The position numbers and the translations under genes were made by a program. Below are positions 5,879 to 54,513 of a stretch of DNA of 64,000 nt, one piece after another (within the stretch, counting starts at the first letter, position 1; the number at the start of each line of letters is the position of its first letter). The notes beneath the pieces are model-generated. The model was given only the letters and a program-made list of their open reading frames with translations. It was not told the origin of the DNA and did no database searches. This DNA comes from an uncultured Clostridia bacterium (GTDB lineage Bacteria > Bacillota > Clostridia > TANB77 > CAG-508), in contig CAUWBF010000004.1 of the NCBI GenBank assembly GCA_963557785.1, positions 36,776-100,775 of the forward strand. Reading direction: 5' to 3'.

Positions 5879-6553
5879 CTAGATATCTTTATGGGCAGTT
5901 GAAATATTTGTATTATTTAATAGTTCAATTAATTTAAATTTAAATTTAATTACTGTATCGGTTGAGCTTTCTGAATTTCCATTTGCAATAAGACTATATT
6001 CTTCATTTGTTAAACTATCTTTGATAGTATCTTTAGATTCTTCAGGAACAATACCACTACTCACGTCTACGAAACATAATGGAGGAAACATTACACACCA
6101 CCAGTTTTGTCCTTGAGATTTTCCAATTTCAATTTTTATAGCATCATAATTTCCAGCTGGAAAGGAAATATCTCCATAACTTTTAGTAGGAAAATGAAAA
6201 TTACCAAAATCAATATTAACATCATAATTAAATCCATTTTCCATAATGGTTTGTTTAGCAATATTTAAAAAATTTTCTTTGTTATTTTTTGCTAATTCTA
6301 ATGCCTCTTCTTTAGAGGTAATATTTTCTGAAATAGAATTCATATAATTTATTATATTATCTCTTACTTTATATTTTAAATTTTGATCTTCTATAGCATC
6401 ACTATTTGCAATTACGTGTAAGCGAAGTACACTATCAGATAAATCTTCAGAAACAGCATAAGTATAATTTGTAGCTAATAAGTATATATATAATAAAAAC
6501 AAAATACTTATTATGACAGTAAATTTTATTTTTTCAAATTTTATAAATTTCAT
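5879..6553 (-). CDS. spoIIR: Stage II sporulation protein R
   Basis: Signal/TM N-terminus followed by the conserved RLHVIANSD motif of SpoIIR. Confidence 0.85.
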   Translation of the reverse strand: MKFIKFEKIKFTVIISILFLLYIYLLATNYTYAVSEDLSDSVLRLHVIANSDAIEDQNLKYKVRDNIINYMNSISENITSKEEALELAKNNKENFLNIAKQTIMENGFNYDVNIDFGNFHFPTKSYGDISFPAGNYDAIKIEIGKSQGQNWWCVMFPPLCFVDVSSGIVPEESKDTIKDSLTNEEYSLIANGNSESSTDTVIKFKFKLIELLNNTNISTAHKDI

Positions 6554-6678
6554 GTAGTCCTCCCTGTAAATAAAAAATATGTTAAATTATTTCTTTAAAA
6601 AAAGTATTAACCAAAATTAAAAAAATATTCAATATAAAAAAATGTCGAAAAAAACAGGTAAATTAAAGGAATTTTGCA

Positions 6679-6707
6679 TTGACACTAAAAAACAAAAATG
6701 GTAAAAT
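6679..6707 (+). promoter_or_regulatory. Sigma-A-like promoter (TTGACA, 17 nt spacer, TAAAAT)
   Basis: TTGACA at 6679-6684 and TAAAAT at 6702-6707, about 30 nt upstream of a GAGGAGG RBS and the ATG at 6739. Confidence 0.45.
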
Positions 6708-6738
6708 ATGGAAATACAAAACCGAGGAGGTTACTAAT

Positions 6739-7260
6739 ATGTTAAATGAAAATAATTTCAAAAGGATGTGTAGTTTTTATGTGAGTGATATTCATTTATC
6801 TACAATGATATTACCATACTTATCTGAAAAATTAGAGAAAGGAGAAATTCTAACTACTTTTTTAGAAAAAGATATACAAAGAGAAATGGAATTATTAGTA
6901 TCAAAAACAAATATTAGAGAAAGTTTAAAAAATATAATAAAAAATATAGATTGGAATAAAACAGATATTATTAAATATACGGAATTAGAAAAAAAACTTA
7001 AAAAATATGATGGTAGAGTAAATATTTTAGTTACGGGAACAGAAGATTATATAAATCATACAAGTAAAAATTTACAAAAATATTTACAAAAAAATAATAA
7101 TATTAAAATTAATGAAATAGATGCATATGAATTAGAAGAAAATAAAAATAAATTTAATGAAATATTAAAAAGATATACATATATGTTAAATACTTCAGGA
7201 GAATATTTAGTAACGGATATATTTAAAAGCGAGGATATAAATAAGAAAGAAATTATATAG
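6739..7260 (+). CDS. Hypothetical cytoplasmic protein (173 aa)
   Basis: The start is chosen at the ATG with a GAGGAGG SD. The upstream extension in the ORF track overlaps both the promoter and the SD. No family is recognised. Confidence 0.5.
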   Translation: MLNENNFKRMCSFYVSDIHLSTMILPYLSEKLEKGEILTTFLEKDIQREMELLVSKTNIRESLKNIIKNIDWNKTDIIKYTELEKKLKKYDGRVNILVTGTEDYINHTSKNLQKYLQKNNNIKINEIDAYELEENKNKFNEILKRYTYMLNTSGEYLVTDIFKSEDINKKEII

Positions 7261-8628: not shown

Positions 8629-10350
8629 ATGGAATATTTAAAAGAATATGAGAAATGGTGTACAGAAAAAGTTTTTGATCAAGAAACAAAAGAAGAATTA
8701 AAAGCTATTGAAAATAATGAAGAAGAAATTAAAGATAGATTTTATAAAGAATTAGAGTTTGGAACAGCGGGATTAAGAGGAGTTATAGGAGCTGGAACAA
8801 ATAGAATGAATAAATATACAGTTGGAAAGGCAACTCAAGGATTAGCAAATTTTATTATAAAAGAAAATGGACAAAATAGGGGAGTTGCAATATCATATGA
8901 TTCTAGAAAAATGTCTCCTGAATTTAGTATGCAAACAGCTTTAATATTAAATGCAAATGGAATAAAAACATATATATTTGATTCTTTAAGACCTGTTCCA
9001 GAATTATCATTTGCTGTTAGAGAATTAGGATGTATAGCAGGGATTATGATTACAGCAAGTCACAACCCACCTAAATATAATGGATATAAGGTATACTGGG
9101 AAGATGGAGCACAAATTGTTGCACCAAAAGATAAATTAATTATAGAAGAAGTAAAAAAAGTAACTGATTATAATGAAATAAAAGAAATGGATAAACAATC
9201 AGCAATAGATGCAGGATTATATAATGTAATAGGAAAACAATTAGATGAAAAATATATGGAAACATTAAATAAATTAGTTTTAAATCCAGATATAATAAAA
9301 GAAGAAAAGGATTTAAAAATAGTTTATACTCCATTACATGGTACAGGCAATATTCCAGTAAGTACAATATTAAAAAAATTAGGATTTGAAAATGTATATA
9401 TTGTAGAAGAACAAAAATTACCAGATGGTAATTTTCCAACAGTTAGCTATCCAAATCCTGAGGATCCAAAAGCTTTTGAATTAGCACTAAAGCTAGCAAA
9501 AGAAAAGGATGCAGATATAGTTTTAGCAACAGACCCTGATGCAGATAGACTAGGGGTATATGCGAAAGATTCAAAAACAGGAGAATATATGCCATTTACA
9601 GGTAATATGTCAGGGTTACTAATTGCTGAATATGAATTATCACAAAAGCAAGAAAAAAATATATTACCAAAAAACGGAGCATTAATAAAGACAATTGTTT
9701 CATCTAACTTAGCTGATGCAATTTCAAAAGAGTATAATGTAAAGTTAATAGAAGTTTTAACAGGATTTAAATATATTGGAGAACAAATAAAATTATTCGA
9801 ACAAACACATGAAAATGAATATGTATTTGGATTTGAAGAAAGTTATGGATGTTTAATAGGAACTCATGCTAGAGATAAAGATGCTATAGCAGCTGTAATG
9901 GCTTTATGCGAAGCTGCAGCATATTATAGAAAGCAAGGATTAACTTTATGGGATCAAATGATAAAAATATATGAAAAATATGGATTCTATAAAGAAGGCT
10001 TATTATCAATAACATTAGAAGGTGCTGATGGAGCAGAAAAAATAAAAGAAATGTTAGAAAGTATGAGAAATAATCCCGTTAGTAAAATCGGAAGTTTTGA
10101 AGTATTAAAATTCAGAGATTATGATAAAGGAATAATAAAAGATTTAAAAAAAGGAACTCAAGAAAATACAAATCTACCAAAATCAAATGTGTTATATTAT
10201 GATTTATCAGAAGATGCTTGGTGTTGTGTTAGACCTTCAGGAACAGAGCCTAAAATTAAGTTTTATATGGGAGTTAAAGGAAATAGCATGATAGATGCAG
10301 AAGAAAAACTTGAAGAACTAACAAATGAAATGAAAAAATATAGTAAATAA
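8629..10350 (+). CDS. Phospho-sugar mutase (alpha-phosphoglucomutase/phosphomannomutase family)
   Basis: GTAGLRG and TASHNPPKYNGYKVY active-site loop motifs, 573 aa. Confidence 0.85.
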   Translation: MEYLKEYEKWCTEKVFDQETKEELKAIENNEEEIKDRFYKELEFGTAGLRGVIGAGTNRMNKYTVGKATQGLANFIIKENGQNRGVAISYDSRKMSPEFSMQTALILNANGIKTYIFDSLRPVPELSFAVRELGCIAGIMITASHNPPKYNGYKVYWEDGAQIVAPKDKLIIEEVKKVTDYNEIKEMDKQSAIDAGLYNVIGKQLDEKYMETLNKLVLNPDIIKEEKDLKIVYTPLHGTGNIPVSTILKKLGFENVYIVEEQKLPDGNFPTVSYPNPEDPKAFELALKLAKEKDADIVLATDPDADRLGVYAKDSKTGEYMPFTGNMSGLLIAEYELSQKQEKNILPKNGALIKTIVSSNLADAISKEYNVKLIEVLTGFKYIGEQIKLFEQTHENEYVFGFEESYGCLIGTHARDKDAIAAVMALCEAAAYYRKQGLTLWDQMIKIYEKYGFYKEGLLSITLEGADGAEKIKEMLESMRNNPVSKIGSFEVLKFRDYDKGIIKDLKKGTQENTNLPKSNVLYYDLSEDAWCCVRPSGTEPKIKFYMGVKGNSMIDAEEKLEELTNEMKKYSK

Positions 10351-10356
10351 TAATTA

Positions 10357-10392
10357 AGGACTAAATACAATTTGTATTTAGTCCTTTTTAAT
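10357..10392. terminator. Bidirectional rho-independent terminator (AAGGACTAAATACA ... TGTATTTAGTCCTT with T-run)
   Basis: Perfect long inverted repeat with flanking A/T runs between convergent genes. Confidence 0.55.
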
Positions 10393-11106
10393 TTCACCTT
10401 TAAACCAACCTTTGATATTACTTCTTTTAATTGCTCCGTATATATTTGCTCTTATATTTGGAATATCTTTTTGAAAACTTTTAATTAAATTTTTCATATC
10501 TTCTCTTTTGGAATATCCATCCATTGGACAAGCTTTTGGCATAATTTGAATATTATTTCTTTTTATATATCCACGAGTTTGGCGTTCTGTAACATATATA
10601 AAAGGTCTAATTAAAGTCATTTTAGATCTATCCATATAACTTACAGGAGCAAATGTATTTATTGTACCAGTATATAGTAAATTCAAGAAAAATGTTTCTA
10701 AAACATCATCTTCATTATGTCCTAATGCAATTTTATTACATCCATGTTCAATAGCAGTGGAATTTAATATTCCTCTTCTTAAGTTAGCGCAAAGTGAACA
10801 AGGATTTTTTTCTTGTCTAATATCAAAAACGATTTCTTTTATATGACTTTTTACTTCTATAAATTCTATATTTAATTCATCACATAACTTTTGTAAAATT
10901 GAAGTATCGAAAAATTCAAATCCAGGATTTACAGTAATTGCAATTAAATCAAATTTTTTAGGATAAAAACGTCTTAAATTATTTAGAGCAATAAGTAATG
11001 TAACTGAATCTTTACCACCTGAAAGTGCTACAGCTATTTTATCATTTTCTTCAATCATATTAAATTCTTCTATTGCCTTTCGCATAGGACTTAAAATACT
11101 CTGCAT
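10378..11106 (-). CDS. ttcA: PP-loop ATPase, tRNA 2-thiocytidine biosynthesis TtcA-like
   Basis: SGGKDS PP-loop and a CSLCANLRR cysteine motif, 242 aa. Confidence 0.7.
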   Translation of the reverse strand: MQSILSPMRKAIEEFNMIEENDKIAVALSGGKDSVTLLIALNNLRRFYPKKFDLIAITVNPGFEFFDTSILQKLCDELNIEFIEVKSHIKEIVFDIRQEKNPCSLCANLRRGILNSTAIEHGCNKIALGHNEDDVLETFFLNLLYTGTINTFAPVSYMDRSKMTLIRPFIYVTERQTRGYIKRNNIQIMPKACPMDGYSKREDMKNLIKSFQKDIPNIRANIYGAIKRSNIKGWFKGEIKKD

Positions 11107-28419: not shown

Positions 28420-29151
28420 ATGTATAATTTATTAATTGTAGAAGGAGATTTAATTCAGTCTCATTTTTGGGTAAATACTGTATGCAAAGAAATTCAAAAT
28501 GTTAGATTATATAATGTAGTTTCTACTGGTAAAGAAGCAATAGATATGATAAAAAGAAATAAAGTGGATTTAATAATATTGAACTTAGAATTACCAGATA
28601 TGAATGGTTTGGAAATAATTAATTTTATTTCTAAAAATAATATAATTGAATATAAATCATCAATTATAGTTATTACAAATGAAGTTAAATTATTAAGAAA
28701 AACAATTGGAAATAATTATATTTTCGATTATTATTTAAGAACAAATAATATAAATTTTTTAATAACGATTATAAAAAATTTGATAAAACAAAAAGAAAAA
28801 GACTGTTGTATAGGAACAATTGAAAACCAAATAAAAATGGAATTAGAAAATTTGAGATTTAATTTTGCTTATAATGGAACAAAATATCTATATGAATGTA
28901 TATGTGAATGTTATTATAAATCAAGTATTAATCTAAATAAGGATATTTATCCGATTATTTCTAAAAAATATAATAAAACTGTAAATGCTATTAAATCGAG
29001 TATTTTCCAATCGATATCTTTAATGTATTATGAAACAGAAGAACAATTTTTATCGGAATATTTCGGATATACCATAATAAATAAACCTAAAACTAAAGAA
29101 ATTATATTTATAATACTTCAAAAGGTAAAAAATATAGATTTTATTGTGTAG
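28420..29151 (+). CDS. Spo0A-C-domain transcriptional regulator with a pseudo-receiver (Asn at the phospho-acceptor position)
   Basis: Receiver-like N-terminus (LIVEGD ... DLIILNLELPDMNGLE ... IIVITN). The C-terminus resembles the Spo0A effector domain (GTKYLYECI ... IYPIISKKYNKTVNAIKSSI versus Spo0A KGYQYLREAI ... [20 protein letters not shown]). Confidence 0.6.
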   Translation: MYNLLIVEGDLIQSHFWVNTVCKEIQNVRLYNVVSTGKEAIDMIKRNKVDLIILNLELPDMNGLEIINFISKNNIIEYKSSIIVITNEVKLLRKTIGNNYIFDYYLRTNNINFLITIIKNLIKQKEKDCCIGTIENQIKMELENLRFNFAYNGTKYLYECICECYYKSSINLNKDIYPIISKKYNKTVNAIKSSIFQSISLMYYETEEQFLSEYFGYTIINKPKTKEIIFIILQKVKNIDFIV

Positions 29152-29208
29152 AAAATGAAACTTTTTTAACTTTTTTATGCACATAAAAGTAAAGAAAGGA
29201 GAAAAAAT

Positions 29209-29751
29209 ATGAGTACTAAAAAAATATTAAATAAATTTGAACAGATGTATAAAGATACGTATAACAGTACACTTAAATATATTATTTGTAGATGTAGTAA
29301 TCTTGATGATGTAGATGATATTATACAAGAAACTTATTTGGAATTATATAATGCTTTAAAAGAAAAAAGAGATATTTCTAATTATTCAGCATATATTATT
29401 GGTATTGCAAAAAATAAGATAATAAAATATTTTAATAGTCATAAAACATCAAATACTATTTCTATTTTTCAAGAAAAAGATAACGAAGAATTTTCTATAG
29501 ATATTGATTCGGGTATAGATATAGAAACAGACTTTATAACAAAAGAAAATATAGATACTATATGGAATTATATAAAAGAAATAGATATGGATACCGCTAG
29601 AATTTTCTATTTGCATTTTATTAAAGATATGACATTAAAAGAAATCTCGGAAGAAGTAGAAATAAAGGAATCAACTATAAAAAGTTCATTATATAGGATG
29701 ATTAAAAACATAAAGAAAATGTATTTAGGAGGTGAAAGAATTGAAAAATAA
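29209..29751 (+). CDS. Sigma-70 family RNA polymerase sigma factor (ECF-like, regions 2 and 4)
   Basis: 180 aa. Region 2 (DIIQETYLELYN) and a region 4 HTH (MTLKEISEEVEIKESTIKSSLYRM) are present. Confidence 0.8.
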   Translation: MSTKKILNKFEQMYKDTYNSTLKYIICRCSNLDDVDDIIQETYLELYNALKEKRDISNYSAYIIGIAKNKIIKYFNSHKTSNTISIFQEKDNEEFSIDIDSGIDIETDFITKENIDTIWNYIKEIDMDTARIFYLHFIKDMTLKEISEEVEIKESTIKSSLYRMIKNIKKMYLGGERIEK

Positions 29752-30793
29752 TGTAAAGGAATATTTTAATAATAGATATTATAATAAAGAAAACAATTAT
29801 ATTACCATTATGTCTGAAATTAAAAGAAAAGAAAATATAAATAAAAACAAAATACTTAAAGTTGTTGCAACATTACTTATATCAGTAATAGGAACAACAG
29901 GAATAGTTTTGGCTACTGCTCAAATATATAATAATTATATAAAAGAAAAAGGAGAAATAGAATCAAAAGGTTTATTTATGGTAAAAGATGATTTATTTGA
30001 TGGTAATTGGCATATAGATAAATTTACAGAAGATATGCTTCAATCAAAAGAAACAGGATTAAACTATAAAATAATAAAAAATGAAGAAGAATATAGTGAA
30101 TATAAAAAGAGAGTAGACAAATTACCTGAAATTTCAGAGATAGATTTTAACAGTGAATTTTTGATATTTATGACAAATTTTGGACAAGCAAACAATCTTT
30201 ATAAAAGAGATTTAACTATATCAGAAATAAATGCAGATGAGAAAACAACTTATGTAACATTAGTGCCAAAAGAGAATTCGAATTATGATAAAACATCTTT
30301 AGCATTATATGCTATTGTAGATAGGACATTGTTAAGAGATAATGTAAAATTTGAAATAGATACGAGTGCTTTTAAAATAGAAAATATTATATCAATAGAT
30401 AAATTACCAGAAAATTATAGTAAAGAAGAAGCAATAAAAGATGGATGTATGGTAATAGAAAGAGTTAAAGAAGGAGAATTTTTATTAGATGAATACAAAG
30501 TATTATCAGAAAATAAATATGCTTTAGACGAAGTAATTGAAAATGCCGAAAAAGACATTGAATCTTATGTAAGAATATATTTTGATGATAGCCAAGAAAT
30601 CCATATAAGAGATGTGCAATATAAAAATGGAATATTTATAATAACTTCTGGACGTCCAGGAAACAGTAATATTGGCACAGGAACATATAAATATATTATA
30701 AAAGAATATTGGAGAAATAATACTTATTGTTATGGGTTAAGTAATATTAATAGTTCAACGTATACAAATAGTTTAATATATATAACATTTTAA
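29732..30793 (+). CDS. Putative membrane anti-sigma factor (short cytoplasmic N-terminus, one TM helix, large extracytoplasmic domain)
   Basis: Overlaps the sigma gene's stop. The start may be GTG at 29732 or TTG at 29741. One TM helix (ILKVVATLLISVIGTTGIVLA) follows about 40 N-terminal residues. Confidence 0.5.
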   Translation: MKELKNNVKEYFNNRYYNKENNYITIMSEIKRKENINKNKILKVVATLLISVIGTTGIVLATAQIYNNYIKEKGEIESKGLFMVKDDLFDGNWHIDKFTEDMLQSKETGLNYKIIKNEEEYSEYKKRVDKLPEISEIDFNSEFLIFMTNFGQANNLYKRDLTISEINADEKTTYVTLVPKENSNYDKTSLALYAIVDRTLLRDNVKFEIDTSAFKIENIISIDKLPENYSKEEAIKDGCMVIERVKEGEFLLDEYKVLSENKYALDEVIENAEKDIESYVRIYFDDSQEIHIRDVQYKNGIFIITSGRPGNSNIGTGTYKYIIKEYWRNNTYCYGLSNINSSTYTNSLIYITF

Positions 30794-30850
30794 ATACATT
30801 ATATAAATCAGAGAATATAAAAAAAGTGGTAAACAATATTGAAAAAAGAA

Positions 30851-30887
30851 AATAGCCTATATCTATTGATATAAGCTATTTTTTGAT
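30851..30887. terminator. Terminator hairpin (ATAGCCTATATC ... GATATAAGCTAT with T-run)
   Basis: Near-perfect inverted repeat followed by TTTTTT, between the anti-sigma gene and tRNA-fMet. Confidence 0.45.
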
Positions 30888-30895
30888 TCTTTATT

Positions 30896-30971
30896 TGGTT
30901 GCGGGGGGTAGACTCGAACTACCGACCTTTGGGTTATGAGCCCAACGAGCTGCCAACTGCTCCACCCCGCG
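30896..30971 (-). tRNA. Initiator tRNA-fMet (anticodon CAU)
   Basis: The reverse complement reads CGCGGGGTGGAGCAG ... GGGCTCATAACCC ... CCCCCGCAACCA. It has a C1:A72 mismatch, three consecutive G:C pairs in the anticodon stem and a CAU anticodon. The ends may be off by 1 nt. Confidence 0.85.
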
Positions 30972-31169
30972 ATATGTTAACAGATATTATTATACATCGT
31001 TTATATTGAAGTTGTCAATATATTTAGGTAAATTAATGATAATAAATTCGATTATATTAAATATTATATTCAACCGATGGATAAAATATGAATAAATAAT
31101 AAAAAAATTCACAAATAATATTGAATGAAATAAAAATAAATGTTAAACTAAAAATAAATATGAAAAGGA

Positions 31170-31871
31170 GTGAAGCAAATGAAAAAGATAGTAAGTTCAT
31201 TACTAGTAAGTATAATTATTATGATGAGTTGTATTATATCAAATGCAGCCAATGTAGCAAATTTAACATTTACATCTAATTCAACTTCCGTTGATGTGGG
31301 TTCTGAAATAACTGTGTACTTAGAAGTAAATAGTTTGTCAGGAATTAGTGAATTATATGGAGTAGCAGGAGTATTAGATTATGATAGAGATACTTTTGAA
31401 CTAGTAAGTGTTACAACAGAAAATGGTTGGCAAAAGACAACAGGAAATATAATGTCATTAATACATTCAGATGGTGTAACTTCTGGTAAAATAATAAAAG
31501 TTGTATTAAAAGCATTAAAGAAACCAGAAAATGGTGCTTCTGCACTAACATTAACACAAGTAAGTGTTGTAGACTTAGACGATGAATATGAACAAGGAGA
31601 TGTAACTTATACAATAAATGTAAAAGAAAATGTAGTTAATCCACCAGCTGAAGAACAACAACCAGAAACAAATACAAGTGAAGATAAAAATACAACAAAT
31701 CAAGGAACAACAAATCAAACACAAAATGGAATACAAAATAACGATACTACAACTTCAAAAGTTAAATTACCTGCAACAGGATTAGATTTAACATTAGCAA
31801 TCCTTATAGCTCTAGCAGTTATTATAGGAGTAGCGTCTTTAATAAGATACAAAAAAATTAAATTAAAATAG
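31170..31871 (+). CDS. LPXTG-anchored cell-surface protein with a cohesin-like domain
   Basis: A signal peptide is followed by a beta-rich cohesin-like region and a Thr/Asn/Gln-rich linker. The C-terminus has an LPATG sorting motif, a hydrophobic helix and an RYKK basic tail. Confidence 0.65.
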   Translation: MKQMKKIVSSLLVSIIIMMSCIISNAANVANLTFTSNSTSVDVGSEITVYLEVNSLSGISELYGVAGVLDYDRDTFELVSVTTENGWQKTTGNIMSLIHSDGVTSGKIIKVVLKALKKPENGASALTLTQVSVVDLDDEYEQGDVTYTINVKENVVNPPAEEQQPETNTSEDKNTTNQGTTNQTQNGIQNNDTTTSKVKLPATGLDLTLAILIALAVIIGVASLIRYKKIKLK

Positions 31872-32013: not shown

Positions 32014-33562
32014 ATGGTGATTTATTTGTTATCTATAATAAAAAGTATGTCTATAAATGGTTTAAGTGGGTATTTAATTAATGTACAAGTAGATATATCT
32101 CAAGGAATTCCATGCTGGGAAATAGTAGGTCTTGCAGATACAAGTATTAAAGAGTCAAAAGAAAGAGTTAGAGTAGCTATAAAAAATTCTGGATATGAAA
32201 TATATAGTAAAAAAATAATTATAAATTTAGCACCGGCAAATACAAGAAAAGAAGGCTCATTTTTAGATTTACCAATAGCAATAGGAATACTTATAAATTT
32301 AAATAAAATTATCAATAGAAATTTAGATGATACAGTTTTTTTAGGTGAATTATCGTTTAATGGTAAAGTAAATAAAATAAATGGAATTCTGCCAATATGT
32401 TTAGAAGCTAAGAAAATAGGAATTAAAAATATTGTAATTCCAATAGAAAATGTTAAAGAAGCTTCTATAGTTGAAGGGATAAAAATAATAGGAGTATCTT
32501 CATTAGAAGATGCAATAAACTATATAAATAATAATAAAAACTTAAAAACTGAAAAAATAGATCATAATTGTATAAATCAAGTAACGTATAATATAGATTT
32601 TTCTGATGTTAAGGGGCAAGAAAGTGCAAAACGAGCATTAGAAATAGCAGCAGGAGGGGGACACAATTGCTTACTAATAGGACCACCTGGTTCACGGTAA
32701 AACTATGTTAGCAAAAAGATTTGTAACAATTCTTCCAGATATGACTTTTGAAGAATCAATGGAGACTATGAAAATACATAGTATAGCAGGAATATTATCA
32801 AATGAAAATCCAATTATTATTAATAGACCGTTTAGGGCACCTCATCATACTATTTCAAAGTCTGCATTAATAGGAGGAGGAAAAATTCCAAAACCAGGTG
32901 AAATTAGTCTTGCACATAATGGAGTATTATTCTTAGATGAATTAACAGAATTTGATAAAGCTACTATAGAAGTATTAAGAGAGCCACTAGAAGAAAAAAG
33001 TATAAATATTAATAGAATTTCAGGAAATTATAAGTTTCCATCTAATTTTATATTTATTGCATCTACTAATCCATGTCCATGTGGATATTTTGGGTCAAAT
33101 AAAAGAAAATGTAAATGTACAAAAAATGCAGTAAATAGGTATTTAAGCAAGATAAGTGGGCCACTACTAGATAGAATAGATTTACATATAGAAGTTAATG
33201 AATTAGATTATGAAAAAATAGAAGATAATAATATTATGGAAACTTCACGACAATTAAAAAATAGAGTAAATAGTGCAAGAAATATACAGAGAATAAGATA
33301 CCAAAATGAAACAATTTCTTCAAACTCTGAACTTACTCCTAAGCTAATTTCAAAGTATTGTGAATTAAATTTAGAAAGTAAAAAAATGATAAAAAATTCA
33401 TTTGAAAAATTGAATTTAAGTGCAAGAGCATATTATAAAATAATAAAAATAGCAAGAACTATAGCTGACTTAGAAGGAAAAGAAAATATTAATAAATTTC
33501 ATATAGCAGAAGCAATTCAATATAGAAGTTTAGATAAAAAATATTGGGAGAGGGAGGAATAA
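32014..33562 (+). pseudogene. comM: Competence/Mg-chelatase-like AAA ATPase ComM (YifB family), interrupted by a +1 frameshift inside the Walker A motif
   Basis: The 228 aa N-terminal ORF ends ...LLIGPPGSR*. The next frame continues MLAKRF..., so the expected sequence GPPGSGKTML is split by an extra C in ggttcaCggtaaaact at about 32690-32700. The two parts sum to a YifB-length protein (about 513 aa). Confidence 0.7.
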
Positions 33563-33563
33563 T

Positions 33564-34472
33564 ATTATTAAATTTAAAATAGATAATAAAGTATTTGATG
33601 TATTTGAAATTAAAAATACTAATATAAATTTTCCAAAAAGATTATTAAATATAAAAAAATGTCCAAGTAAATTATATGTTATTGGTAATCAAAAATTATT
33701 AAATAATTTTTCAATTTCAATAGTAGGTTCAAGAAAATGTACAAAATATGGTTTAGAAAAAACAAAAGAAATCGCAAAGGATTTATCAAAAAGTGGAGTT
33801 ACCATTGTAAGTGGATTAGCTATAGGAATAGATTCTTTTGCACATTTATATTCTATGAATGAGATAGGAAGAACAATTGCAGTATTAGGAAGTGGTTTTA
33901 ACAATATATATCCAAAAGAAAATAAAAAATTATTTTTTGAAATATTAGAGAATAATGGCTGTATAATTACCGAATATAATTTTAATGAACCAATATCAAC
34001 TAAAAATTTCCCAATAAGAAATAGGATAATAAGTGGAATTTCAGTAGGAACGTTAGTGGTAGAAGCAATGAAAAAAAGTGGGAGTAATATAACAGCGAAA
34101 TACTCTATAGAACAGGATAAAAAATTATTCTGTATACCGAATTCAGTTGATATAAAACAAGCAGAAGGTACAAATGAACTAATTAGAAAAGGGGCAATAT
34201 TAACTAGAGATTATCAAGACATATTAGATGAATATTTACCAATAAATAATTCTAATAATTTTAGAAAAAATAAAAAAGTTGCAAAAATTATAATACCAAA
34301 TGAATATATTGAAATTTATGAAAAAATTAATTATATTCCAATAAATATAAATGAATTATATAGAAAGTTGAATATAAAAAATATATCTTATTTAAATCAA
34401 ATTTTATATATGATGGAAATAGATGAATACATTGAAAAATTACCTGGTAATAATTATATTAGAAAAAATTAA
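33564..34472 (+). CDS. dprA: DNA-processing protein DprA (Smf), probably using a non-AUG start (ATT at 33564) coupled to the comM stop
   Basis: A conserved DprA Rossmann core (SISIVGSRKCTKYG ... VSGLAIGIDSFAH ... TIAVLGSG ... FPIRNRIISG) is encoded upstream of the first ATG at 33855. No ATG, GTG or TTG occurs in frame between the stop at 33531 and 33855. GGAGG at 33553-33557 precedes the ATT at 33564. Confidence 0.75.
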   Translation: MIKFKIDNKVFDVFEIKNTNINFPKRLLNIKKCPSKLYVIGNQKLLNNFSISIVGSRKCTKYGLEKTKEIAKDLSKSGVTIVSGLAIGIDSFAHLYSMNEIGRTIAVLGSGFNNIYPKENKKLFFEILENNGCIITEYNFNEPISTKNFPIRNRIISGISVGTLVVEAMKKSGSNITAKYSIEQDKKLFCIPNSVDIKQAEGTNELIRKGAILTRDYQDILDEYLPINNSNNFRKNKKVAKIIIPNEYIEIYEKINYIPININELYRKLNIKNISYLNQILYMMEIDEYIEKLPGNNYIRKN

Positions 34473-52630: not shown

Positions 52631-53101
52631 ATGAAGAGAATAACACAAATATTTTTTCTTATTTTAATTTTTACCATATTATTAATATTACTAATTAATA
52701 TCACTGGAAGCAATAATAATTCTTATGCTGCACAAACATCAGGAACTTCAGACATTCAACTTATGGCAAGAGCAATAAATGGTGAAGCAAGAGGAGAACC
52801 ATATGAAGGACAAGTTGCAGTGGGTGCAGTTATTTTAAATAGAGTAAAAAGTTCAAAATTTCCAAATACTATTGCAGGAGTAATATATGAAAAAGGTGCT
52901 TTTACAGCAGTAAGCGATGGCCAAATAAATGTGCCAATAGCAGAAAATTCCACTGTATATAAAGCAGCAAGAGATGCGATGAACGGATGGGATCCAACAG
53001 GAGGAGCGATATATTATTTTAATCCAGATACTGCTACAAATAAATGGATCTGGTCAAGACCTTTAATAAAGACAATAGGTAAACATAGATTTTGTAGATA
53101 A
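52631..53101 (+). CDS. sleB: Spore cortex-lytic enzyme, SleB/CwlJ-type Hydrolase_2 domain
   Basis: A signal peptide plus the Hydrolase_2 catalytic core (LMARAINGEARGEPYEGQVAVGAVILNR), directly followed by ypeB. Confidence 0.7.
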   Translation: MKRITQIFFLILIFTILLILLINITGSNNNSYAAQTSGTSDIQLMARAINGEARGEPYEGQVAVGAVILNRVKSSKFPNTIAGVIYEKGAFTAVSDGQINVPIAENSTVYKAARDAMNGWDPTGGAIYYFNPDTATNKWIWSRPLIKTIGKHRFCR

Positions 53102-53118
53102 AAAAGGAGAATAGATTT

Positions 53119-54513
53119 ATGAATATTAAAGAAAAATTAATAGACTGGAAAAATAGATTAAAAGATACTCATATGCTTAGCGTAATAGTAGTACTATTTT
53201 CAATAATAGTTATATTAGGAGTATATGCATATAAAAAGCAAAGAGAATTTAGACAAGCCTCTGAAAACTCATATAATATGGCATTTTATGAATTGGTAGA
53301 TTATGTACAAAATGTGGAAAACTATTTAGGAAAATCATTAATTTCCACAACTCCTGAACATGGAGCTGAAACATTAACTAGAGTATGGAGAGAAGCAAAC
53401 TTAGCACAAGCATATTTAGCACAACTTCCAATAGAAAGTAATGAGCTAGAAAACACATCAAAATTTTTAAATCAAGTAAGTGATTATAGTTATTCATTAT
53501 CCAGAAAGAATATATATAATGAATCTTTAAGCCAAGAAGATTTAGATAATTTAAAACAATTACATGATTATAGCGTAAATTTAGAGAATACGTTAACTCA
53601 ATTATCAGAAGATATAAATAATGGAAGAATAAAATGGGGAGAATTAACTAAAAAAGGAACAACAGCTTTTGCAACTCAAGTAAGTAATATCTCAAAAGAT
53701 AGTTTTAGTAATTTAGAAGAAACTTTTCACGAATATGCAGGTTTAATATATGATGGAGCTTTTTCAGAACATATAACAAAAGCTGAAAAAGTTGGTCTTA
53801 CAGGAGATAATATTTCAGAAGAAGAAGCAAAAAATATAGCAAAAAATTTTATTGGAGAAAGTAATATAGAAGAAATAACAATGAATGGATTAAGTGAAAA
53901 TACAGAAATGCCAACATATGATTTTGATATAAAATTAAAAGATAAAAATAAAGATGAAAATACTATGTCTTTATCTATAAGTCAAAAAGGTGGGCATATA
54001 GTATTTAGTAACTATAATAGAAAAGTAGAAGCGGAAACTATAGATTATAATAAAGCAAATGAATATGGAATTAATTATTTACAATCAAAAGGGTTTAATA
54101 ATATGAAGGAAACATATTATTTAAAACAAGATGGAATTTTAACTATTAACTATGCATACAATCAAGATGGCGTAATTGCTTATCCAGATTTAATAAAAGT
54201 TAAAATTGCTTTAGATAATGGAGAAATATTAGGAATAGAAACAACAGGATATCTAAATTCACATATGACAAGAAAAAATACAACTCCAAAAATATCAAAA
54301 GAAGAAGCTAAAAAAACATTAAATAAAAACTTAAATATAGAATATGAAGGACTAGCAATAATTCCTACAGAATTTAAAACAGAAGTATTATGTTGGGAAT
54401 TTAAAGGAAAAATTGATGATACAGAATTTTTAGTATATATAAATGCAGAAAATGGTAGAGAAGAAGATATTCTTACTATTGTAAATACACCGGATGGAGT
54501 TTTAACAATGTAA
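53119..54513 (+). CDS. ypeB: Germination protein YpeB
   Basis: N-terminal TM helix, a YpeB-like N-domain and C-terminal PepSY-like repeats. The sleB-ypeB operon architecture is present. Confidence 0.7.
   Translation: MNIKEKLIDWKNRLKDTHMLSVIVVLFSIIVILGVYAYKKQREFRQASENSYNMAFYELVDYVQNVENYLGKSLISTTPEHGAETLTRVWREANLAQAYLAQLPIESNELENTSKFLNQVSDYSYSLSRKNIYNESLSQEDLDNLKQLHDYSVNLENTLTQLSEDINNGRIKWGELTKKGTTAFATQVSNISKDSFSNLEETFHEYAGLIYDGAFSEHITKAEKVGLTGDNISEEEAKNIAKNFIGESNIEEITMNGLSENTEMPTYDFDIKLKDKNKDENTMSLSISQKGGHIVFSNYNRKVEAETIDYNKANEYGINYLQSKGFNNMKETYYLKQDGILTINYAYNQDGVIAYPDLIKVKIALDNGEILGIETTGYLNSHMTRKNTTPKISKEEAKKTLNKNLNIEYEGLAIIPTEFKTEVLCWEFKGKIDDTEFLVYINAENGREEDILTIVNTPDGVLTM

Follow-up and report, generated by a model that had tools for sequence, protein, structure and literature searches.

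A pseudo-receiver joined to a Spo0A_C domain, and the sigma factor cassette around it, in an uncultured Clostridia bacterium

Is every receiver fused to a Spo0A_C domain a Spo0A, and how may such a protein act once its receiver has lost the aspartate that is normally phosphorylated? Both questions are raised by a 243-amino-acid protein, here called the regulator, encoded in a 64,000-nucleotide stretch of DNA from an uncultured Clostridia bacterium (assembly GCA_963557785.1, contig CAUWBF010000004.1, positions 36,776–100,775 of the forward strand). This whole stretch is hereafter the window, and positions are given in its coordinates unless a related contig is named. We found that the N-terminal domain of the regulator is a pseudo-receiver of the aspartate-less kind according to the published definitions, i.e., a domain recognized as a receiver by hidden Markov model and fold which is devoid of the phospho-acceptor Asp and/or other catalytic residues (PMC4395418; PMC12632262). 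The gene stands directly upstream of genes encoding a sigma factor of the extracytoplasmic function (ECF) type and a putative anti-sigma factor, as had been pointed out in the initial annotation of this DNA, and the linkage proved to be conserved across the family, the anti-sigma role being deduced from context. Taking identity and mechanism together, we lean slightly towards reading the regulator as an orphan, atypical response regulator in which a complete but catalytically dead receiver is joined to a Spo0A_C helix-turn-helix domain, and which would act independently of phosphorylation at a dose set by a sigma/anti-sigma switch.

The receiver and its active site

The regulator gene (Table 1) is preceded by the ribosome-binding site AGGAGG at 28408–28413. 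Its product matched the Pfam models Response_reg (41.9 bits, cutoff 30.2, amino acids 5–89, E = 1.3e-10) and Spo0A_C (42.2 bits, cutoff 25, amino acids 141–235, E = 8.8e-11) and, in a phmmer search of PDB chains, the structure of the Spo0A C-domain, 1fc3 (E = 1.3e-6); the initial assignment of the C-terminal half to Spo0A_C is thereby confirmed. Of the 111 positions of the receiver model, no more than the first 80 are matched. The AlphaFold model, computed from 47 homologs, reaches a predicted local distance difference test (pLDDT) score of 90.1 and contains a full (βα)5 receiver of five strands and five helices, in the order receiver, long helix 5 (amino acids 111–131) and then six Spo0A_C helices. 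Whole receiver structures were superposed on the N-terminal half by Foldseek, with template-modeling (TM) scores of 0.84–0.88 and a root mean square deviation of ~2 Å, and the fold-defining residues Pro59, Gly63, Thr86 and Tyr104 are retained; the receiver fold is therefore kept, as proposed at the outset. The sequence blocks on which that proposal was based are all present: LLIVEGD (amino acids 4–10) and ILNLELPDMNG (amino acids 53–63) in the receiver and, in the DNA-binding half, NGTKYLYECI, which corresponds to KGYLYLREAI of Spo0A, and IYPIISKKYNKT, a helix-turn-helix scaffold still resembling the corresponding segment of Spo0A.

The phospho-acceptor position is occupied by Asn55, which faces the phospho-Asp of LuxO (3cfy) and of ArlR (6is1) in the phmmer alignments. 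In the model, Glu8 and Gly9 come right after β1, Asn55 lies at the end of β3, Thr86 at the end of β4 and Arg107 right after β5, so that the pocket reads E-G-N-T-R in place of the canonical D-D-D-T-K. The alignments to solved receivers and the inspection of this quintet agree on the Asn, and the alteration of the acidic pocket, also suspected initially, is borne out by Gly9, which replaces the metal-binding Asp; the conserved Lys is gone as well. Three of the five active-site residues (Gly9, Asn55 and Arg107) are thus substitutions, and only Glu8, the first acidic residue, and Thr86 are left. The residue next to Thr86, at position T+1, is Asn87 and no longer Ala/Gly; Leu rather than Ser/Thr precedes Asn55, and Asp50 and Asp60 flank the site. 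Since the acceptor, the metal-binding Asp and the Lys have all disappeared, phosphoryl acceptance at the canonical site is not expected. Asn55 is no sequencing error, as the same exact protein recurs on seven contigs derived from at least three sequencing runs (ERR318688, SRR26629429 and SRR27108410); near-identical copies of the gene show zero differences inside it.

In these respects the regulator resembles other pseudo-receiver, or aspartate-less receiver, regulators such as ChxR, HP1043, GlnR, RitR and CmrT, in which the receiver fold is kept and phosphotransfer residues are missing (PMC4395418; PMC12632262). Like them, it is an orphan regulator lacking a partner kinase gene nearby; it also conforms to the reported pattern, with more frequent loss of the second acidic residue than of the first and a residue other than Ala/Gly at T+1. 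It departs from them in its output domain, which is Spo0A_C and not OmpR, NarL or similar, in the replacement of Asp by Asn and not by the commoner Glu, and in having immediate relatives with a complete pocket, which makes the loss traceable step by step.

Distance from Spo0A and loss of the aspartate

The regulator shares with Spo0A the two-domain architecture, a recognizable Spo0A_C fold and helix-turn-helix, a Firmicute/Clostridia host and short blocks of sequence (GTKYL corresponding to KGYLYL, and KPK to KPT, of Spo0A). It differs in being shorter (243 vs. ~267 amino acids) with almost no hinge, in having neither phospho-acceptor nor second acidic residue nor conserved Lys, and in the charged residues of the recognition helix, which are replaced: R211, E213, R214 and R217 of Spo0A align to A, K, S and F. 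We take these four Spo0A residues to include base-contacting ones in the Spo0A-DNA structure; with the recognition helix changed in this way, a DNA specificity other than that for the classical 0A box is to be expected. The latter reads TGTCGAA, of which G2, C4 and G5 are contacted (PMC3485338). A further difference lies in the setting of the family, which is multi-copy, sometimes mobile and linked to ECF sigma/anti-sigma genes instead of to the sporulation phosphorelay.

Could the regulator be the organism's real, highly diverged Spo0A, and hence its sporulation master? The architecture would suit this role, for a receiver joined to Spo0A_C is taken in the literature as diagnostic of Spo0A (PMC6136694), and so would the sporulation and germination genes in the window, which include spmA/spmB-like genes (1766–2883), spoIIR (5879–6553), and sleB and ypeB (52631–54513). 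However, the regulator scored 48.6 bits with the Spo0A equivalog model TIGR02875, the cutoff of which is 200 bits, and is 17% identical to Bacillus subtilis Spo0A; its phospho-acceptor is absent and its recognition helix is not conserved. Moreover, the family sits on a long branch relative to Spo0A and does not behave as a single-copy core gene, being present in two to three copies per genome and also on conjugative elements, and the gene is missing from the close relative L069 (related contigs are referred to by L numbers and related proteins by P numbers). The true Spo0A proteins found by tblastn in an annotated plasmid collection, and unannotated relatives from gut phages, are only 20–26% identical to it. 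We therefore rejected the candidate of a highly diverged genuine Spo0A and regard it as extremely improbable. Judged by its sequence, the regulator is not Spo0A but belongs to a family of its own, deeply diverged from Spo0A and seen in uncultured low-GC Clostridia. The organism itself probably forms endospores, and because the window carries sporulation genes, a canonical spo0A is expected elsewhere in its genome. Of the description originally given, that of a phosphorylation-independent Spo0A paralog, the pseudo-receiver has stood up, while close paralogy to Spo0A has not, given the low identity, the subthreshold TIGR02875 score and the replaced recognition helix.

Two other groups of Spo0A-like proteins invite comparison. 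Second Spo0A homologs of Clostridia, exemplified by Clo1313_0637 of Clostridium thermocellum and by the two or three spo0A paralogs of some Clostridiales (PMC4890492; bioRxiv 10.1101/2022.02.25.481979), are likewise extra receiver-Spo0A_C proteins beside a main Spo0A. They are, however, 49–58% identical to B. subtilis Spo0A, whereas the family described here lies much further from it and comes with a conserved gene neighborhood of its own. The truncated Spo0A homologs of phages (PMC10294663) also represent Spo0A_C-type DNA binding freed from the phosphorelay, but these versions are without a receiver, while the regulator is chromosomal and carries a full-length, inactive one. Viral contigs, when scanned by pattern, yielded no relative, and tblastn against phage records gave only distant matches (20–23% identity) in gut phage records.

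We recovered 62 homologs in a word-indexed search (best 65% identity), and 271 clusters at E ≤ 1e-30 in a profile search of 1.84 billion representatives. Among the best 150 matches listed, most are ~225–250 amino acids long and match end to end; the regulator itself scores 323 bits with the family profile over profile positions 1–240. When genome collections were scanned with the 23 closest sequences, the family was seen, in the GTDB species set, only in metagenome-assembled genomes of uncultured Clostridia and often in multiple copies: three paralogs in BRZ_CS__bin100 and two in tandem in BRZ_ES__bin101. At position 55, Asp is carried by 149 of the 187 full-length members, Asn by 26 and another residue by 12. 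Position 9 is D in 102 members and G in the window protein alone, position 107 is K in 137 and R in five, and the complete [D/E]-D-D-[S/T]-K set is present in about half; the three residues lost from the window protein are retained in the family consensus. The family overall looks phosphorylatable from these counts, and the Asp has been lost many times, the Asp-less members (~20%) being scattered over several clades. The loss reported in the initial annotation is thus real, recent and shared by the window protein with its sister P0004, yet it is not a family trait, as ~80% of members keep Asp55.

A neighbor-joining tree pairs the window protein (E-G-N-T-R) with P0004 (E-D-N-T-K) as its sister. 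The simplest history would place D55N in the ancestor of the two and D9G and K107R later, on the branch leading to the window protein, an order to be expected if the rest of the pocket no longer matters without the acceptor. The protein of L005, from BRZ_CS__bin100, has the P0004-type pocket, and the DNA upstream of its gene matches the P0004 locus, L071. None of the three pockets of the BRZ_CS__bin100 paralogs (EDNTK, ENDIK and EDKTL) is canonical, and the L062 genome carries a canonical copy (EDDTK) beside a degenerate Spo0A_C protein of 248 amino acids (DNNNE). Identity of the regulator to its homologs amounts to 53–65% in the receiver and 62–73% in the DNA-binding domain; its next relatives are 62–65% identical, a distance at which synonymous sites are saturated.

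The sigma factor cassette and its promoters

The order regulator, sigma factor, membrane protein (Table 1) is found in the window and in L005, L006, L007, L062, L067, L071 and L074, the last of which has it at only 34% regulator identity and on a conjugative element. The arrangement is looser elsewhere. In L065, the sigma/membrane-protein pair is adjacent to the regulator gene but convergent with it, and in L008, L009 and L010 a sigma gene lies within ~4 kb on the other strand; no sigma gene was found near the regulator genes of L072 or of P0061, a deep Asn-bearing member. A histidine kinase gene was found in none of the more than ten regulator neighborhoods. No terminator-like site separates the regulator and sigma genes of the window.

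Table 1. Features of the regulator gene and its surroundings (window coordinates).
Feature	Position	Strand	Comment
Secreted protein gene, three SH3b-like repeats	27451..28302	-	Divergent from regulator gene
Phased A-tract words AAAATGAAG, AAAATGTCG, AAAAGTTTA, AAAATACAA	28329..28369	+	Upstream of regulator promoter motif
Perfect Spo0A box TGTCGAA	28343..28349	+	77 nt upstream of regulator ATG
ECF-type promoter motif, regulator gene	28372..28400	+	-35 TGAAAC (28372-28377), T-tract, -10-like AAACTA (28395-28400)
Regulator gene (243 amino acids)	28420..29151	+	Pseudo-receiver, amino acids 1 to ~131, fused to Spo0A_C domain, amino acids 134-237
Glu8/Gly9 codons, acidic pair	28441..28446	+	Second, metal-binding Asp replaced by Gly (GGA, 28444-28446)
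Asn55 codon AAC, phospho-acceptor position	28582..28584	+	One G-to-A change from an Asp codon
Thr86 codon ACA	28675-28677	+	
Arg107 codon AGA, conserved Lys position	28738..28740	+	
Predicted recognition helix, amino acids 188-199, VNAIKSSIFQSI	28981..29016	+	Aligned to Spo0A recognition helix; amino acids 188-205 helical in model
ECF-type promoter motif, sigma gene	29156..29184	+	-35 TGAAAC (29156-29161), T-tract, -10-like GCACAT (29179-29184)
ECF sigma factor gene (180 amino acids)	29209..29751	+	Sigma70_r2 and Sigma70_r4_2 (Pfam); TIGR02937 80.7 bits, cutoff 42.9
Single-pass membrane protein gene (350-353 amino acids), putative anti-sigma	29732..30793	+	Overlaps sigma gene; conserved synteny
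Terminator-like hairpin, likely operon end	30849..30882	-	Between membrane-protein gene and tRNA-Met gene

The membrane protein has no Pfam match. Its ectodomain of ~250 amino acids was modeled by AlphaFold at pLDDT 80–95, with no PDB match at E < 0.001, and its 92 N-terminal residues at pLDDT below 50. We call it a putative anti-sigma factor because its gene overlaps the sigma gene, because the synteny is conserved and because a sigma factor of L062 carries transmembrane and extracellular domains of its own. The divergent gene on the other side of the regulator has a longest open reading frame of 283 amino acids, within which the called gene starts at Met18 and encodes 266 amino acids with a signal peptide. 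Its product matched the SH3_3 repeats of a 1406-amino-acid protein in L065 (E = 5e-17), and its direct match to the Pfam SH3_3 model is weak (E = 0.06). Divergent homologs of this SH3b-like gene lie upstream of the regulator in L005, L006 and L007 (45–53% identity) and in L062 (35%), and L067 has in the same position a divergent gene of similar size (251 amino acids), likened to it by position only. With a sigma/anti-sigma pair and a secreted SH3b-like protein as the conserved partners, a response at the envelope or surface is indicated.

Among known systems, ECF modules with an added regulator, e.g., PhyR-NepR-EcfG, are comparable in that a receiver protein is genetically coupled to an ECF sigma factor and a membrane partner; autoregulation through an ECF-type promoter is also probable in the cassette. 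The output domain of PhyR is sigma-like and PhyR needs phosphorylation, whereas the output of the regulator is the DNA-binding Spo0A_C domain and phosphorylation, to judge from the pocket residues, should be impossible in the window member.

Related cassettes vary in composition. In L007 (6761–12708; BRZ_CS__bin100), three tandem sigma/membrane-protein pairs follow a single regulator gene, each with its own TGAAAC/TGCAAC-type promoter motif. The gene after the regulator in L062, a Hadza gut contig, encodes at 8858–10663 a 601-amino-acid protein that unites an ECF-like sigma domain with a transmembrane helix and ~390 amino acids of extracellular sequence; two further sigma/membrane-protein pairs and the second, degenerate Spo0A_C protein belong to the same locus. 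Sigma genes are split by frameshifts into two open reading frames in L006 (6687–7350) and L067 (8812–9355), which shows that some cassettes of the family are decaying. The conjugative-element contigs L065 and L074 also carry TraG-, PrgI-, PcfJ- or ArdC-like genes, and each has near the regulator a small gene of the AbrB/MazE type (PF04014; L065, 10787–11044, and L074, 5584–5826), a neighborhood reminiscent of the pairing between Spo0A and AbrB in Bacillus.

The regulator and sigma genes of the window are both preceded by an ECF-type promoter motif. An exact 16-nt repeat, AAATGAAACTTTTTTA, lies upstream of the regulator at 28369 and again at 29153, 2 nt past the regulator stop codon, and the sigma motif itself begins 5 nt past this codon. 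Alignment of the equivalent regions in related cassettes gave a gap-free motif made up of TGAAAC (variants TGCAAC and TGTGAC), a T-tract, 17 nt in all, and xxxCTA, which matches the published ECF signature: an 'AAC' in the −35 element (tGAAACnTTTt) and a T-tract by the −35 (PMC5758882). According to the same source, most ECF sigma factors transcribe their own gene. A weight matrix built from 15 sites of this motif scored 34.6 bits at the regulator promoter (28370) and 32.9 bits at the sigma promoter (29154), against 14.6 bits for the next best position in the 64 kb and maxima of 8–22 bits in shuffled sequence. The motif is present upstream of the regulator genes of L005, L006, L007, L009, L062, L065, L067 and L071 and upstream of the sigma genes of L005, L006, L007 (three copies), L067, L069 and L071. 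In L074, the regulator and sigma genes share another motif, ATTGCACCCAA ... TATCTATA; the promoter thus changes with the sigma factor, as expected if each cassette sigma reads both promoters.

Upstream of the regulator promoter lie phased A-tract words, two of which are overrepresented in the equivalent cassette regions: AAAAGTT was found in six of ten (0.37 expected) and AAAATGT in five of ten (0.34 expected). They may be binding sites of the regulator or curved DNA resembling an UP element. Within the same stretch, a perfect 0A box overlaps a sigma-70-like −35 (TCGACA) of the minus strand, facing the SH3b-like gene, where the promoter-like match runs from 28348 to 28319. Such sigma-70 matches are at chance level (31 found vs. 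30.8 expected), and so are perfect 0A boxes, with two in the window vs. 2.25 expected. For this reason we dropped the box as evidence for Spo0A control and keep it only as a candidate site. The idea of a rewired developmental regulator, advanced in the initial annotation, is likewise unsupported, since nothing but this box in the promoter region tied the cassette to sporulation. The other perfect 0A box (6643–6649) is intergenic between spoIIR (5879..6553, minus strand) and the open reading frame 6679..7260.

Several further features lie around the cassette. The stretch 24124–29155 holds, together with the SH3b-like gene and the regulator, two minus-strand genes (600 and 316 amino acids, no Pfam match) which are not found beside the cassettes of L005–L010, and all 16 single-nucleotide polymorphisms of the near-identical contig L003 fall within 23522–25878. 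Directly past the cassette, a tRNA-Met gene (30896–30971, minus strand), which could mark an integration site, has a promoter of perfect sigma-70 consensus at 31018–30989 (TTGACA, 18 nt, TATAAT) and the long hairpin terminator of Table 1. Beyond it, 31170–31871 encodes a small surface protein that combines a cohesin domain (26 bits) with a linker rich in Thr/Asn/Gln and, at its C-terminus, an anchor signal of the LPXTG type; it is probably outside the operon because the tRNA gene separates it from the cassette. The competence gene comM/yifB (Mg-chelatase-like, 32014–33562) is split into open reading frames of 228 and 285 amino acids with 4 nt between them. Gene calls on L001, the matching stretch of the source contig and 100% identical to the window, show the split too, so that it is a frameshift or stop in the genome or the assembly. 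The dprA-like open reading frame at 33855–34472 has only 205 amino acids, covers only positions 96–209 of the DNA_processg_A profile and looks N-terminally truncated; together with the split comM, it suggests decay of competence genes. A defense-system or prophage reading of the locus was dropped, as PADLOC returned nothing and PHROGs only families of unknown function.

Regulation by dose, its rivals and its meaning

If the regulator is, as we favor, controlled by its dose, an extracellular or envelope cue would reach the membrane protein, and the sigma factor would be set free from its anti-sigma. The freed sigma would raise its own level and that of the regulator via the two TGAAAC promoters. 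The regulator would be active, or competent for DNA binding, as made, and its abundance rather than its phosphorylation would carry the signal; constitutively active pseudo-receivers regulated through their availability provide a precedent (PMC12632262). It would bind sites other than 0A boxes, the candidates being the A-tract/GT repeats of its own divergent promoter region, and would control the cassette and the secreted SH3b-like gene, perhaps also genes elsewhere, possibly together with the cassette sigma. The retained receiver probably serves dimerization or contacts with partners.

Several points weigh against such dose control. In L069, which is ~90% identical to the window in the DNA of its sigma/anti-sigma region, the sigma promoter, sigma and anti-sigma genes are kept without the regulator and the SH3b-like gene: the amylase gene leads straight to the sigma promoter, and ~5 kb (24124–29155 of the window) are missing. 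As more distant relatives have the full cassette, the difference is explained more economically by a deletion in L069; the sigma module can thus persist without the regulator, and selection on the latter may be relaxed. The matrix scan found no third copy of the promoter motif above background in the window, upstream of the SH3b-like gene included, so that no further member of the regulon is identified. It is from position and analogy that the adjacent sigma would be the one to read the motif, and its −10 element (xxxCTA) is unlike the CGT of B. subtilis ECF promoters. The candidate binding repeats consist of A/T-rich words and lie where the GC content is ~23%; they could simply represent curved DNA. 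Finally, the N-terminus of the membrane protein, modeled at low confidence, has no recognizable anti-sigma domain, and the sequence of the Asn form would be compatible with an 'on' as well as with an 'off' state.

The loss of the Asp might instead mark a decaying or functionless copy, with a drifting pocket and the gene on its way out. Stepwise loss of three of the five pocket residues, the absence of the regulator from L069 and the frameshifted sigma genes of the sister cassettes in L006 and L067 would all fit. We nevertheless consider decay distinctly unlikely: the open reading frame is intact, with a strong ribosome-binding site and a high-scoring promoter motif, the fold-defining residues are kept in a confidently modeled structure, and the receiver is only moderately less conserved than the DNA-binding domain. 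Furthermore, the Asn state is common to the window protein and P0004/L005 and has persisted through ~38% sequence divergence, Asp-less members recur in several clades, and the identical protein comes from at least three samples. An outside but appreciable chance is left to a pseudo-receiver that continues to receive a signal, with a protein partner or a small ligand, and not Asp phosphorylation, as the switch. The partner could be the sigma factor, the membrane protein through its cytoplasmic tail or, in a heterodimer, an Asp-bearing paralog. Both kinds of control are documented for pseudo-receivers (PMC12632262). The receiver fold and its surface-forming helices are retained, the genes of the regulator, sigma factor and membrane protein travel together even in L074, and related genomes with several paralogous cassettes (BRZ_CS__bin100 with three, L062 with two, L010 with two in tandem) do contain partners for heterodimers; on the other hand, no ligand-binding feature is evident in the regulator, and co-inheritance of a cassette is no proof of physical interaction.

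Phosphorylation may also persist where the acceptor has changed, as some CheY Asp-to-Asn mutants are still phosphorylated at a non-canonical residue. A two-component pathway kept in this manner, with a distant kinase acting on a residue near the active site, could make use of Thr86, Glu8 and the flanking Asp50 and Asp60, and since Asp-bearing members of the family are orphans too, a kinase encoded elsewhere is plausible. For the window protein we rate this as very unlikely: with the metal-binding Asp9 and Lys107 gone, the phosphotransfer apparatus is missing beyond the acceptor, the residue before Asn55 is not Ser/Thr, and kinase genes are absent from all the neighborhoods inspected.

It is possible, and we propose it tentatively, that the cassettes constitute a new three-part signaling unit composed of a membrane sensor/anti-sigma, an ECF sigma factor and a DNA-binding co-regulator of the Spo0A_C type. 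By analogy with Spo0A and its contacts to sigma-A and sigma-H, the Spo0A-like protein would act as a partner dedicated to its own sigma factor, and the unit would duplicate and move as a block, conjugative elements included. Because the signal already enters via the anti-sigma, the receiver would have been repeatedly released from phosphorylation. If this is true, the transition away from phosphorylation has reached a natural end point in the window protein, and a receiver joined to Spo0A_C is unreliable as a marker of Spo0A or of sporulation.

The extra spo0A paralogs of Clostridiales, the truncated Spo0A homologs of phages and pseudo-receivers as a class are already known. A limited literature search found no pseudo-receiver Spo0A and no ECF group with a Spo0A_C partner, and the diverged receiver-Spo0A_C family coupled to ECF sigma/anti-sigma genes is so far undescribed in the literature searched. 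In genome surveys, a response regulator with Spo0A_C is taken to signify Spo0A and the capacity to sporulate (PMC6136694); the family, with at least 271 clusters, would count in such surveys as false positives or as 'extra spo0A paralogs'. What is known of sporulation itself is left unchanged by these findings. Pseudo-receivers, in turn, are common, and their switching is largely unexplained (PMC12632262). Among the close relatives of the window protein, the whole span between an intact pocket and the loss of three residues is represented, and a plausible replacement input, a promoter gated by sigma/anti-sigma, is legible in the DNA, so that a few constructs would suffice to test the question. 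The cassette represents a hitherto undescribed type of partner for ECF sigma regulation in gut Clostridia and their mobile elements.

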